DNA from: a virus
Length of the DNA: 64,000 bases
Direction: 5' to 3' (one strand)
IMG/VR virus record: IMGVR_UViG_3300020469_000009
The notes beneath the pieces are model-generated. The model was not told the DNA's origin and made no database searches. It saw only the letters and a list, made by a program, of their open reading frames with translations. Shown piece after piece: positions 23,343 through 43,087 of the stretch. The translations under genes and the position numbers were made by a program. Each line of letters opens with the position of its first letter. The first letter of the stretch is position 1.

Positions 23343-24150
23343 AGTTAATTGTTGTTAAAAATTCGTCTGTAAATACTCCATCAACCCGTATTGTATAGGT
23401 CCATTTAGGACTTGGGTCGACACCGTGGTAATTAAGGTCATGAAACACATAACAATTACTATCCACGTAATGCTGTTTATCGTTTTCTTGGTCATAAATA
23501 AATCCTTTTTTCTCCATATTAGGACTAATCATTATTGAATTATGGTCTTCTAACATTACAAAGGGATTATTATCTCTATGTACTGTCACATGTTGGCAAC
23601 TATCTACTCCAAATATATTAATTCTACCTATTTGTTTAAATGGTAATTTTTCTAATATCCAATCTATTAAAAATGGGAAATACTTTTTTGCTTCTGCTCT
23701 GATGTATTTTCCTGCTGTAGAGCTTTGTTCATTCCAGGGGGACCACATGATTGGATATACGTCTCTCCAAGGATAGTAAGCTCCTTTTTTATACTTGATA
23801 TATTTTTCAAGAATTTTCTGTTTCTTATAATCATTTTCAGGTAATGTTTTAACTCTATGTATTTCTTCATCATATAATTTTGCTCTTGCATATTTGACAT
23901 CTAAATAATCACTGTCAAAGAATTTTGTAAATGCATCTCCTCTAGAATAATCATCACCTACACTAAATATAAGGTCATCACTTCTAGCCATACCCCAGCA
24001 AACTTCATCATTAATTTTAACTGCAGCATCTTTTGTTAATAAATCTAAATGATGAAATGGTTTACCATTGATTTTGATTAAAGGCTGTATTCTTTTTTTC
24101 TTTGGAGGATTTGCAATAAAATCATCTCTAGACTTAAATTGATAATCCAT
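23308..24150 (-). CDS. cupin/2OG-Fe(II) oxygenase-like protein
   Basis: VHRD...YHGVD...TIRVDG. Confidence 0.6.
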   Translation of the reverse strand: MDYQFKSRDDFIANPPKKKRIQPLIKINGKPFHHLDLLTKDAAVKINDEVCWGMARSDDLIFSVGDDYSRGDAFTKFFDSDYLDVKYARAKLYDEEIHRVKTLPENDYKKQKILEKYIKYKKGAYYPWRDVYPIMWSPWNEQSSTAGKYIRAEAKKYFPFLIDWILEKLPFKQIGRINIFGVDSCQHVTVHRDNNPFVMLEDHNSIMISPNMEKKGFIYDQENDKQHYVDSNCYVFHDLNYHGVDPSPKWTYTIRVDGVFTDEFLTTINYERPWNVKTKS

Positions 24151-25202
24151 TACTCTTCTTCTACTTCTTCTACTTCCTCTACCACTGCTTTTGTACTAGT
24201 ACCAATTGCATATCTATCTTTAATTGCATCAGCAAAACCAGCTTTAAACATAGGAATCCAAAATTCAGAATGTGATGTATCAGCTTTACGCTTTTTATCT
24301 GTAATTACTTCACCCGTTTTAGGATTAGTACCTTCAAACCAACCTACTGAAGGTTTGTTTACCCAGCCTAATTCTAATCCAATGTCAAGTAAACCAGACC
24401 ATTTGTTAATACCACCTTCCCAGGTGACACTTAAAGGTAATCTAGTTTTTTCTCTTACAAATCTAGATTTTTCTACACCCATCATAAAGTGATAACCTGC
24501 TATTTCAGTACCTTCTTTTTCTTGCTGCCTACCCATAAATAATATTTGATTTGCAGAATAGTAAATACCAGTACCACCACCCATTACATCTTTAGGAAAC
24601 ATTCCAATCTCTTTATAAGTGTGATTGACTGCAACTAAAGGTATATCTCTTGTTGTAAGATAAGGTGTACAAATTCTAAATAATGATTTAAGTGCTTTAG
24701 CTCTTGACATATCTGCTACTGATTTACCATCAAGTGCATCTTCTAATTCTTTTTTAGATGCTAAATTACCGACTGAATCAATTACAATAATAACTTTATC
24801 ACCTTTATCTATTTCTTCTAATTGTTTTGTAATATCAAACTTAAGTTGTTCTACATGTTCAATTGGTGTGTGTATACATCTTTGTGGGTCTACACCCATA
24901 CTTTCTAAGTATTCAGGTGTGATACCAAACTCTGTATCATATAATAAACAAACAGCTTCTGGATATTTTTTCATATAAGCATGAGCCATAAGTAATGCCA
25001 GGTTTGATTTGAAATGTTTTGATGGACCTGCTAAGACAGTAAGTCCAGGTGTTAATCCTCCATCAATAGAACCAGATAATGCAATATTCAAAACCGGTAC
25101 ATCTGTTGGTACCATATCTTTTTTATTGAATAATGCTGAATCTGATAAGACTGCTGTGGATTTTACGGTTGAAGTTTTTTTAAGCTTTTCTAGTAGCGAC
25201 AT
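24150..25202 (-). CDS. uvsX: RecA-like recombinase UvsX
   Basis: AGPSKHFKS, YDTEFG, IDSVGNLASKKE, DMSRAK. Confidence 0.95.
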   Translation of the reverse strand: MSLLEKLKKTSTVKSTAVLSDSALFNKKDMVPTDVPVLNIALSGSIDGGLTPGLTVLAGPSKHFKSNLALLMAHAYMKKYPEAVCLLYDTEFGITPEYLESMGVDPQRCIHTPIEHVEQLKFDITKQLEEIDKGDKVIIVIDSVGNLASKKELEDALDGKSVADMSRAKALKSLFRICTPYLTTRDIPLVAVNHTYKEIGMFPKDVMGGGTGIYYSANQILFMGRQQEKEGTEIAGYHFMMGVEKSRFVREKTRLPLSVTWEGGINKWSGLLDIGLELGWVNKPSVGWFEGTNPKTGEVITDKKRKADTSHSEFWIPMFKAGFADAIKDRYAIGTSTKAVVEEVEEVEEE

Positions 25203-25217
25203 AATGTTTCCTTTGTT

Positions 25218-25260
25218 GGTTGTTTTATTCAGCGTATACCAACGCCGTACTATATTTATA
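25218..25260 (-). promoter_or_regulatory. late promoter plus conserved leader motif, copy A (uvsX leader)
   Basis: TATAAATA-N9-GTTGGTATA-N8-AAAACAACC; same layout at 43045-43087. Confidence 0.75.
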
Positions 25261-25283
25261 CCACTACTAGAAGCTTTTTTATG

Positions 25284-34277: not shown

Positions 34278-34285
34278 TATTTATA
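34278..34285 (-). promoter_or_regulatory. T4-type late promoter (near-leaderless transcript)
   Basis: TATAAATA-ACCT-ATG. Confidence 0.7.
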
Positions 34286-37187: not shown

Positions 37188-37568
37188 CTAATTTGACGAC
37201 TTTTTGCCTATAGTATAATTAGCTTTTAATGTCCAAGATGATTTTTCTTTGAAAGGGATTATCTTTACTTTTTGTAAAGATGCTGGTTCTGGGTTTCCTA
37301 CTACTGAACAGAGTTTCCATTCTTCAAGCAACTTAGCAATGCCATTCCTACGAGCAACATCTTCTTGTGTTATCTCACGGTCAAAGCCATCAAGCTTAAA
37401 TAACTCTCTATAGTGGCAGAGATAATACTTTCCTTTTTTATGTAAAATATGACAAGTTTGAACTAGTTTTCTGTCTTTGCTCTCTAGTCCAATCCTAGTC
37501 AAAGTTTCTACAATTTTTAGGAAGTCATCTCGCTCTTTGAGTTGAATTTCTAGTAATTCCTCTAACAT
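37188..37568 (-). CDS. regA: translational repressor RegA
   Basis: DDFLKIVETLTRIG, QTCHILHKKGKY, WTLKANYTIG; GGAG RBS. Confidence 0.93.
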   Translation of the reverse strand: MLEELLEIQLKERDDFLKIVETLTRIGLESKDRKLVQTCHILHKKGKYYLCHYRELFKLDGFDREITQEDVARRNGIAKLLEEWKLCSVVGNPEPASLQKVKIIPFKEKSSWTLKANYTIGKKSSN

Positions 37569-37606
37569 AATCTCCAAAAGTTTAAGTTAGATACGCCTGA
37601 ATCTAT

Positions 37607-40639: not shown

Positions 40640-40916
40640 CTTCTTCTTTTAATAACTCTAATACTTGCACGGGTACTAACATATGAATTTTGTATGTTTC
40701 TTTTTTTGGATCGTTTTTTAATGCTTCTTTATAGAGACTTAATGCACTTAATGCATCATCAACAGTCACTTCTAAAAGTTTCTTATGTAAATCTTTTTGA
40801 GTTTTTAAGAACCTTTCAGCGGCAGCTGTAGCATCTTCAATAGCATCTTCAATAGATACTCTATCTTCTTCTGTGATATCAGACAGCACTGTACTCGCCA
40901 TCAGGTTGAAGGGCAA
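40626..40916 (-). CDS. hypothetical acidic protein
   Basis: ORF packed in operon. Confidence 0.6.
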   Translation of the reverse strand: MPFNLMASTVLSDITEEDRVSIEDAIEDATAAAERFLKTQKDLHKKLLEVTVDDALSALSLYKEALKNDPKKETYKIHMLVPVQVLELLKEEDETE

Positions 40917-41538
40917 TAAAGTAGTCTATACCACCAGCACCTTTAAACAAACATAATCCCTTAGCACATATATCAATACTATAATCATCAAGGACCATCT
41001 TTAATTTATCAACTGAGATTGACAAGTTATACTTTTGACTTTTTAATTCTTGTTGTGTTATTTTAAATTTGTTTGAAGTGGGTATTGTTTTATCATGTAC
41101 AATAATACCTTCCTCAGTAAATGTAATATCTGAAGCATTATTAATAGTAGCTGCTTTTGCTAACCTACCTAAATTTTCTTTAGTGATTTCTTTTTGTACA
41201 TCTACTTCTGGTAGTGTGATACCTTTTTCTGGTGGCCTTGCAATAATATTTTCATCTGCATAATAATATTTTTGTTCACCATTTGCATCTGATATTGTTA
41301 GTGAATCTTCACCAAATTCAAATTCAGCATCTTGATCAAATAGTGATACAACACCCATAAATTCATTTAAGTCATATATTGCAAATCTTACTGGAAATGT
41401 TTCATCAACAGTGACCTTTGCATAAATGTCTTTAATATTAGAAATGGTTTCAATTGTACTACCTTCTTCAATTAAGATGGATTGGTTAATTGAGGCAAAG
41501 TTTTTAAGTATGCCCAGTGTTCTCTTGCTAATTTTCAT
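40879..41538 (-). CDS. gp45: sliding clamp gp45
   Basis: LKNFASINQSI, FAIYDLNEF, YFIAL. Confidence 0.93.
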   Translation of the reverse strand: MKISKRTLGILKNFASINQSILIEEGSTIETISNIKDIYAKVTVDETFPVRFAIYDLNEFMGVVSLFDQDAEFEFGEDSLTISDANGEQKYYYADENIIARPPEKGITLPEVDVQKEITKENLGRLAKAATINNASDITFTEEGIIVHDKTIPTSNKFKITQQELKSQKYNLSISVDKLKMVLDDYSIDICAKGLCLFKGAGGIDYFIALQPDGEYSAV

Positions 41539-42809: not shown

Positions 42810-42995
42810 TTATTTCTTCTTGGAGGATTTTTCTTCTTGATGAAATTTGATTAGCCATTTCATATCTGTTTGAATTTCTGTGATGGCTTTTTCAATGTGG
42901 GTAAGGTGATTGGTCTCTATAAGGTAAACCCTCCATGCGAGGAATCCTATAAAGCCCACTAGTGTCGTAATAAAGATTGATTCGTATATACCCAT
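42810..42995 (-). CDS. small membrane protein, TM plus coiled coil (holin/XhlA-like)
   Basis: TM helix followed by IETNHLTHIE...TDMKWL. Confidence 0.55.
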   Translation of the reverse strand: MGIYESIFITTLVGFIGFLAWRVYLIETNHLTHIEKAITEIQTDMKWLIKFHQEEKSSKKK

Positions 42996-43044
42996 CAGTT
43001 TTTCCTAAATTTAAAAGATAATATAATTTATTGTGATATGTTGC

Positions 43045-43087
43045 GGTTGTTTTAAATCCAGTTTACCAACTGTATAGTGTATTTATA
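43045..43087 (-). promoter_or_regulatory. late promoter plus conserved leader motif, copy B
   Basis: TATAAATA-N9-GTTGGTAAA-N8-AAAACAACC. Confidence 0.75.

Follow-up and report, generated by a model that had tools for sequence, protein, structure and literature searches.

A 43-nt motif occurs twice in the 64,000-nt stretch of viral DNA analyzed here (IMG/VR record IMGVR_UViG_3300020469_000009, hereafter the window), each copy running from a T4-type late promoter box into the leader of a different gene, uvsX for copy A and a 61-amino acid (aa) open reading frame (ORF) for copy B. Several described systems can be compared with it. The preQ1-I aptamer (RF00522) is an H-type pseudoknot of ∼30–34 nt, with a short first helix, a second helix of 3–4 bp, and an A-rich 3' tail. 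In phages T4, T2, and RB69, the leader of gene 32 contains a pseudoknot that is both an autogenous translational operator and an mRNA-stabilizing leader. In T4, this pseudoknot is followed by an unstructured leader, and no other viral pseudoknot may be known that is involved in translational autoregulation (PMC3014915). A different device is found at T4 genes e, soc, 49, and I-TevI, whose start site is hidden in long transcripts and open in transcripts from a late promoter located inside the 5' arm (PMC3014915). Finally, PeSL cassettes combine sigma-70-type early promoters with terminator stem-loops and are found in hyperplastic regions of T4-type phages (Arbiol et al. 2010, PMC2839356). No riboswitch has been characterized in T4-type phages (PMC3014915).

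Like the gene 32 pseudoknot, the motif is located in the leader of a T4-type phage message and serves a replication or recombination gene, and in the window copies it is a candidate for a compact H-type pseudoknot at the 5' end, followed by an A-rich, predicted unstructured stretch reaching to the ribosome-binding site. On the other hand, there is no sequence similarity, the genes served here are uvsX and a small ORF, the AUG is 15–65 nt away, and the second helix of the marine copies is only 3–4 bp long. The motif is not located at gene 32 either. In the 152-kb IMG/VR contig that we used as a stand-in genome for the window (G001, whose UvsX is 85% identical), gene 32 lies at 78.5–79.1 kb and uvsX at 31.8 kb, i.e. 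∼47 kb apart, and in a second genome (G010) gene 32 adjoins its upstream gene, without a pseudoknot leader. We found no description of such an element in the literature. At gathering threshold no Rfam family matches the window, and a search with either copy at E ≤ 10 returned nothing relevant (best E > 0.7), including no preQ1 or other riboswitch family. This agrees with an earlier note on this DNA, made from its letters alone, which had proposed a new cis-regulatory RNA, either a small riboswitch or a translational operator, at the 5' end of late transcripts. As detailed below, there is good support for a leader RNA that is new and acts in cis, whereas a function as riboswitch is unlikely. 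In an abundant clade of uncultured marine T4-like phages, two particular late transcripts are set apart by this small and highly conserved leader RNA.

Conservation and covariation of the motif in a marine clade

Both 43-mers are present exactly as previously quoted, 18 kb apart on the minus strand (copy A from 25260 to 25218, copy B from 43087 to 43045). A degenerate pattern allowing up to three mismatches matches the window at these two sites only, versus no match in 100 dinucleotide shuffles. Copy A reads TATAAATA-TAGTACG-GCGT-TGGTAT-ACGC-TGAA-TAAAACAACC and copy B reads TATAAATA-CACTATA-CAGT-TGGTAA-ACTG-GATT-TAAAACAACC, the tail being a 10-mer once the conserved T preceding AAAACAACC is counted. 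The 4-bp stem of copy A (GCGU/ACGC) can be extended to 6 bp (CGGCGU/ACGCUG), and this hairpin is the minimum-free-energy fold (−8.6 kcal/mol). In addition, the tail ACCA of copy A (25220–25217) is complementary to UGGU in the loop (25241–25238), a candidate for the second helix (S2) of a minimal pseudoknot. In folds of copy A, the leader downstream of the motif is A/C-rich and unpaired. The uvsX ATG follows 15 nt after the end of copy A, and the 61-aa ORF starts 49 nt after the end of copy B. In T4, late transcripts have their promoter box at −13 to −6 and start ∼6 nt 3' of it. The element is strand-specific and lies just downstream of T4-type late promoters, as the earlier note had it (Table 1). 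The window contains only eight TATAAATA boxes, fewer than the 13.4 expected from shuffles. All eight are located on the minus strand; the motif is found at two of them and absent at the other six. One of the boxes, at 34285, is only 4 nt 5' of an ATG, which would either give an mRNA without a leader or mean that this box does not serve as a promoter.

Exact-pattern scans retrieved the motif from 23 stretches of IMG/VR and from 18 of a metagenome collection, all belonging to one marine clade and all at the same two loci. G001 and further long contigs contain exactly two copies each, ∼18 kb apart, as in the window. Other matches to the pattern lack a promoter and are found in other contexts (for example, L011 and L013 are apparently coding and L067 is a repeat), and only one of the seven stray metagenome matches (L067) has a pairing stem. 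The motif is absent from the leaders of uvsX relatives at ∼60% identity, and when generic and family-specific pseudoknot descriptors were run against the window and against two relative genomes, they showed no enrichment over shuffles beyond the known copies.

Among the variants, the spacer between promoter and stem and the 4-nt linker are substituted at nearly every position, whereas GUUGGUA, AC, and UAAAACAACC show no change at all, and AACAAAGGA, which comes next after the tail in copy A, is likewise invariant. Loop and A-rich tail, previously noted as conserved between the two copies, are indeed unchanged across the 23 viral and 18 metagenome stretches, save for the sixth base of the loop UGGUAN, which is U, A, or C. 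In total, ∼24 positions are unchanged and common to both paralogous copies, while their neighbors are near saturation with substitutions. The spacing, identical between the two window copies, does not hold as a general rule, because the promoter-to-stem distance ranges from 7 to 16 nt in copy-B relatives.

The stem follows a different pattern. Its outer two pairs (stem NNGU/ACNN) vary by compensation, occurring as GC/GC, GA/UC, and CA/UG. In an 11-sequence alignment, 98.7% of stem cells are paired, versus ≤58% in slid controls, and double-sided changes are seen at two pairs (G-C/C-G and C-G/A-U/G-C); none of 500 shuffles matched the observed covariation score. One stem pair also changes by compensation among copy A orthologues, from C-G to A-U. 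The compensatory stem that had been noted from two copies therefore extends to the clade. Similarly, an RNAalifold consensus of 11 copy-B leaders retains the first hairpin (S1), and it alone because the start regions of the two subgroups cannot be aligned with each other. Judging from these alignments, the stem evolves as expected of a single strand that folds and is strongly selected, not as expected of a double-stranded protein site or of a neutral duplication.

This pattern bears directly on two other explanations of the motif. The first is that it acts at the level of DNA, as a promoter-proximal site composed of a palindrome and an A-rich block, which would tune these two late promoters upon recognition by the late RNA polymerase holoenzyme or another DNA-binding protein. 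The position directly downstream of the late promoter box (+1 to +30) would suit such a site, and the stem of copy A is a short palindrome centered on GTATAC. However, the half-sites change by compensation instead of being conserved, which is the behavior of a folded single strand, and the promoter-to-stem distance varies from 6 to 16 bp. In addition, loop-tail pairs covary in locus L063 and in the wider family described below, in which some copies have no recognizable promoter. We consider a DNA site highly improbable. The second explanation is a duplicated promoter cassette without any function of its own, as known from T4-type phages, in which regulatory cassettes are shuffled. Such a cassette could account for two copies that are separated by 18 kb and both start with a promoter, and PeSL provide a precedent for repeated modules of promoter and stem-loop in T4-type genomes (PMC2839356). 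Yet the similarity is limited to discrete blocks between which the nucleotides have fully diverged, and both copies are kept at orthologous positions clade-wide, under strong purifying selection. The likeness to PeSL is also partial, because these combine a sigma-70 promoter with a terminator, whereas here we find the late-type box TATAAATA, an invariant loop and tail, conserved loci, no U tract, and no terminator-like site overlapping copy A or B. A functionless cassette is therefore extremely unlikely. Two further candidates were tried and rejected: a conserved mini-ORF (TTG GTA NAC NNN NNT AA in the marine copies), whose codons show no amino-acid conservation and whose stop is missing in the freshwater family, and an NtcA-type or other palindromic DNA site, ruled out by a stem that covaries rather than being conserved.

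Table 1. Positions of the two motif copies and of associated features in the window
Feature	Position	Strand	Details
Copy A late promoter box TATAAATA, T4-type	25253..25260	minus	predicted transcript start ∼25247, from the T4 rule
Copy A hairpin S1	25230..25247	minus	core GCGU (25245-25242) with ACGC (25235-25232); loop UGGUAU (25241-25236)
Copy A tail UAAAACAACC(A)	25217..25227	minus	same sequence in all relatives
Copy B late promoter box TATAAATA	43080..43087	minus	
Copy B motif	43045..43072	minus	CAGU (43072-43069) with ACUG (43062-43059); loop UGGUAA; linker GAUU; tail UAAAACAACC 43054-43045
Long-range helix enclosing copy A (predicted)	25182..25276	minus	5' arm AAGCUUCUAGUAGUGGUAUAA 25276-25256; 3' arm UUAUGUCGCUACUAGAAAAGCUU 25204-25182
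Copy B start region complementary to motif	42993..43016	minus	AUG 42995-42993
uvsX recombinase	24150..25202	minus	PHROG UvsX-like, 1e-92; gene served by copy A
61-aa ORF	42810..42995	minus	hydrophobic N-terminal stretch, probably membrane-spanning; gene served by copy B
Sliding clamp gp45 (gene 45)	40879..41538		order after copy B: 61-aa ORF, 405-aa ORF, gp45
RegA translational-repressor homologue	37188..37577	minus	PF01818, 1e-37

A pseudoknot family in leaders of aquatic T4-like phages

One match lies outside the marine clade. This locus, L063, has TATAAATA at equal spacing and the frame GUUGGUA..AC..UAAAAC, and its loop (UGGUAG) and tail (CUACCA) form a perfect 6-bp helix that is part of the minimum-free-energy structure. 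The 90-aa ORF (P0002) downstream of L063, which shows no relationship to the 61-aa ORF of the window, heads a cluster with a cell-wall hydrolase, gp33, gp59, and gp32, and has homologues in at least 600 stretches of IMG/VR. Of these loci, 80 were retrieved, and in about half of them the leader has an H-type pseudoknot, preceded by a late-promoter-like box (CTAAATAAT or TATAAATA) and followed by a CA-rich spacer with the Shine-Dalgarno site. Its layout is S1 (3–6 bp)-UU-S2a (5–6 nt)-A(U)-S1b-(A/U)UAAAA-S2b, and versions of S2 include GAAGG/CCUUC, GAUGG/CCAUC, GGCAG/CUGCC, GGUGA/UCACC, and GUUAG/CUAAC. A plain MAFFT alignment of the family shows double-sided changes at four of six S2 pairs, with a score of 0.456 versus ≤0.14 when slid. 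Among 23 distinct sequences aligned to the family model (S1 being outside the model), 94.6% of S1 and S2 cells are paired and seven of ten pairs show double-sided changes, with a score of 0.458 versus ≤0.11 when slid, and none of 500 shuffles did as well. As far as these alignments go, both helices of the family pseudoknot are supported by covariation. No relevant Rfam match was found for a family representative at E ≤ 10, and at gathering threshold the only Rfam matches in 21 related loci are transfer-messenger RNAs (tmRNA) and one match to the TYMV upstream-pseudoknot model (TYMV_upPK).

The family is variable in architecture. Other phages have, at the same position, H-type pseudoknots with other stem and loop lengths, some without a junction loop, and paralogous pseudoknots within one freshwater phage differ in both stems. 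Extra copies precede other genes, some without a recognizable promoter, start codons are located between 2 and ∼115 nt away from the pseudoknot, and one copy directly follows the 3' end of a phage-encoded tmRNA. In the freshwater family, stems vary freely, shapes vary, the distance to the AUG varies, and one copy is found at an RNA-processed 5' end, which suggests that a compact pseudoknot is in itself what has been selected. The wide range of distances and the copy behind the tmRNA are more easily reconciled with a role at the 5' end than with a pseudoknot that directly covers the Shine-Dalgarno site.

The same variability weighs on the proposal of a very small riboswitch with the size and topology of preQ1-I, in which a ligand would stabilize the pseudoknot and thereby free the start region (copy B) or alter pairing of the leader (copy A). 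There are real similarities with preQ1-I, i.e. size, H-type topology, short helices, and an A-rich 3' tail that would form the third loop, to which many invariant bases may be added; moreover, the competing anti-start-site fold of copy B (see below) would serve as an expression platform, and matching no known family the element would be a new class. However, we found no match to the RF00522 covariance model at any threshold tried, nor any other Rfam riboswitch even at E ≤ 10, and the conserved bases are different. The related pseudoknots vary in stem and loop lengths, some lacking the junction loop, and therefore have no conserved pocket. There is no queuosine or preQ1 gene context either: the genes downstream are uvsX, the ORF for a small, probable membrane protein (61 aa), and the 90-aa ORF, which have no common metabolic theme, and copy A is without an equivalent expression platform. 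With nothing to indicate a ligand, the small riboswitch of the earlier note is very unlikely.

The window copies can be written in the family layout, as CGGCG-UU-GGUAU-A-CGCUG-AAUAAAA-CAACC (copy A) and CAG-UU-GGUAA-A-CUG-GAUUUAAAA-CAACC (copy B). The outer three of five S2 pairs then form, the inner two being mismatched, the family junctions GUUG and UAAAAC are present, and in MAFFT alignment A2 the motif aligns with the family column for column. By inspection, the site just after a late promoter and the order S1, UU, S2a, A, S1b, AUAAAA, S2b correspond to those of the family; the differences are that loop and tail are invariant in the window motif rather than covarying, and that its scores with family models are below noise. 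We regard membership of the window motif in this aquatic leader-pseudoknot family as plausible and lean toward it. From sequence comparison, the motif most likely represents the marine branch of this family of aquatic T4-like phages, which has not been described before, its second helix having become shorter, and we infer closure of the pseudoknot in this form. If so, the motif connects to a covariation-supported family that is found in hundreds of environmental T4-like contigs and is absent from Rfam.

Some additional features of these loci were observed. Several pseudoknot-bearing T4-like contigs encode a tmRNA just upstream of the 90-aa ORF (L092:1094-1438, L146:21-393, L168:423-759, and others), which matches both the beta_tmRNA and tmRNA_permuted models, and in some contigs the 3' end of the tmRNA adjoins the leader of the 90-aa ORF or a pseudoknot copy. 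Two loci have two leader pseudoknots in tandem upstream of the 90-aa ORF (L095:1415-1473 and L096:1415-1474). In a complete 174-kb T4-like genome (G009:C1, ∼132549, minus strand), a strong H-type pseudoknot of different shape, GGGGC-ACG-AGGUGU-GCCCU-GAUA-ACACUU, directly follows TATAAATA and precedes a 263-aa ORF. The TYMV_upPK match, at the homologous leader position of another locus (L099:1443-1465; 42 bits versus a gathering threshold of 38), is probably a chance resemblance of small pseudoknots. Finally, a pseudoknot-like sequence, CACA-U-GGUGG-UGUG-AAAAUAAAA-CCACC, is found ∼350 nt downstream of a 90-aa ORF (L170:1900-1935), apparently in or after the next gene.

Start regions of the two genes and the proposed role of the leader RNA

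Two features that the earlier note had missed concern the start sites of the genes served: the late promoter of uvsX lies inside a start-hiding helix, and the motif of copy B has complementarity to the start region of its own message. The uvsX helix is 16–21 bp long. Its AAGCUUCUAGUAGUGGUAUAA arm includes UAUAA, the first five bases of the promoter box, and its UUAUGUCGCUACUAGAAAAGCUU arm includes the uvsX AUG and spans codons 2–7. As assessed by folding of an RNA that starts upstream of the promoter, the structure has −29.4 kcal/mol (z = −4.39), a value that none of 200 shuffles reached. All eight leader variants retain the 16 core pairs, and at codon 2 a synonymous TCG/TCA change is matched by C/U in the upstream arm (one covarying pair). 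We found no terminator between hsp20 and uvsX. These predictions suggest that read-through transcripts hide the uvsX AUG, while late-promoter transcripts, which are without the 5' arm, would be open, the 43-nt motif being located in the apical part of the helix and thus at the predicted 5' end of the open transcript. This is the layout of the T4 gene e, soc, 49, and I-TevI hairpins, with a late promoter in the 5' arm and the AUG in the 3' arm, and pairing of a start site with a promoter-bearing upstream arm was found in the uvsX leader only. The likeness concerns the helix around copy A and not the 43-nt motif itself. The device is not described for uvsX in PMC3014915, and the predicted helix would extend it to a recombination gene.

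In the copy B leader, UUUUAAAUUUAG (43016–43005) pairs with CUGGAUUUAAAA (43061–43050) within the motif, and AACUG (43000–42996), next to the AUG, pairs with CAGUU (43072–43068). Minimum-free-energy folds of the late transcript show such a closure in all 11 copy-B variants, including a second subgroup that reaches equal closure with different sequences, and between 0 and 21 of 500 shuffled leaders gave a duplex as good. The S1 hairpin and this closure are mutually exclusive. Because whole-leader z-scores are modest (−1.2 to −2.0), we treat the closure as suggestive; the folds suggest that the copy-B motif may close on its own ribosome-binding region.

Our preferred explanation, to which we give a probability of roughly 45%, is that the motif is a cis-acting 5' leader RNA governing accessibility of the 5' end and of the start site in two late mRNAs. 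Transcripts initiated at the two T4-type late promoters would have the element as their first ∼30 nt, and both copies would act as RNA in cis. By the T4 rule, S1 is predicted to begin at +1 in copy A (extended stem) and in L063, at +3 in copy B, and at −1 to +2 in the remaining marine copy-A variants. The RNA would fold into a 4–6-bp hairpin, with a stem free to vary by compensation, an invariant UGGUAN loop, and the invariant tail UAAAACAACC, and pairing of ACC(A/G) in the tail with (U)GGU in the loop would close a minimal H-type pseudoknot. Being transcribed first, 0–3 nt from the predicted 5' end, the element would fold ahead of the remaining leader. Folding would bury the 5' end, hindering decay that depends on a free 5' end, and would withdraw motif nucleotides from long-range pairing with the ribosome-binding region, which in copy B is the Shine-Dalgarno-AUG region. 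The element may in this way set the stability and translatability of these particular late messages. At copy A, the read-through helix that is predicted to hide the uvsX AUG would be a separate layer, with starts at the late promoter remaining open.

Several observations weigh against this explanation. The element is found at only two late promoters per genome and is no general trait of late mRNAs, and S1 of some copy-B relatives begins as late as ∼+10, ∼9 nt past the predicted start, which would leave a free 5' end. The marine S2 is only 3–4 bp long, an isolated UGGU/ACCA duplex amounting to only ∼−2.5 kcal/mol. Family covariance models R1 and R2 list neither window copy at E ≤ 10, and a marine-only model matches only L063 among the family loci (26.3 bits). 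Since L063 also scores in a freshwater-only model (19.5 bits), a single intermediate links both groups. There is no covariation for the marine GGU/ACC, which is invariant in this clade, and three viral scans and one metagenome scan, one of which left both GGU and ACC free, yielded no altered variant. The GGU/ACC pseudoknot proposed earlier thus gains indirect backing from the equivalent 5–6-bp helix, which covaries in L063 and the related family, but in the marine clade itself it is weak, without variation, and missed by the family models. The longer GUUGGU/ACCAAC pairing that had been proposed for copy A is present there and nowhere else. Lastly, the invariance of unpaired loop and tail bases exceeds what a purely structural cap would need.

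This invariance of loop and tail in two paralogues hints at a shared trans-acting reader, most likely a protein, and thereby at the main rival explanation, a sequence-specific operator comparable to those of T4 gene 32, gene 43, and RegA, its closest analogues. A phage RNA-binding protein, for which the RegA homologue of the window, gp32, and an unknown factor are candidates, would bind the hairpin loop and the single-stranded A/C-rich tail and repress or activate translation of a small regulon consisting of uvsX and the operon upstream of gp45. That so many positions, unpaired ones included, are kept in both paralogues amid saturated neighbors is in line with this, and is unusual since the freshwater paralogues differ in both stems. 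Also in line with an operator are the presence of a RegA homologue, the replication or recombination genes in both served operons, and the precedent in T4, where an unstructured leader comes after a pseudoknot (PMC3014915). However, the sites known for RegA lack structure and include the AUG (PMC3014915), whereas here the AUG is 15 nt (copy A) or 49–65 nt (copy B) away, and gene 32 is elsewhere in the genome. We consider an operator rather unlikely. The most far-reaching interpretation is a ∼30-nt molecular switch, smaller than any known riboswitch aptamer, in which a ligand or a phage protein would lock the hairpin and the loop-tail contact, the Shine-Dalgarno-AUG region of copy B would be released, and a small late regulon of recombination and replication genes would be turned on; the marine motif would then be a sensor-bearing branch of an otherwise purely structural family of leader pseudoknots. 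Taken as a whole, this switch is a long shot. If the preferred function as a cis-acting leader RNA is true, the motif would represent a new class of 5' leader element in phage gene control and a compact natural module for control of mRNA stability or translation.

Source phage and gene content of the window

The window, which has a G+C content of 33.6%, originates from an uncultured marine T4-like myophage. Its UvsX is at most 60% identical to proteins of cultured phages, and a tblastn search gave ∼59% identity to UvsX of T4-like phages. Relatives of the 405-aa ORF that separates the 61-aa ORF from gp45 are either close or at 25% identity, with none in between. Other products encoded in the window are gp41, gp43, gp44/62, and Hsp20, and the RegA homologue is placed between the clamp-loader genes and DNA polymerase, in T4-like order.

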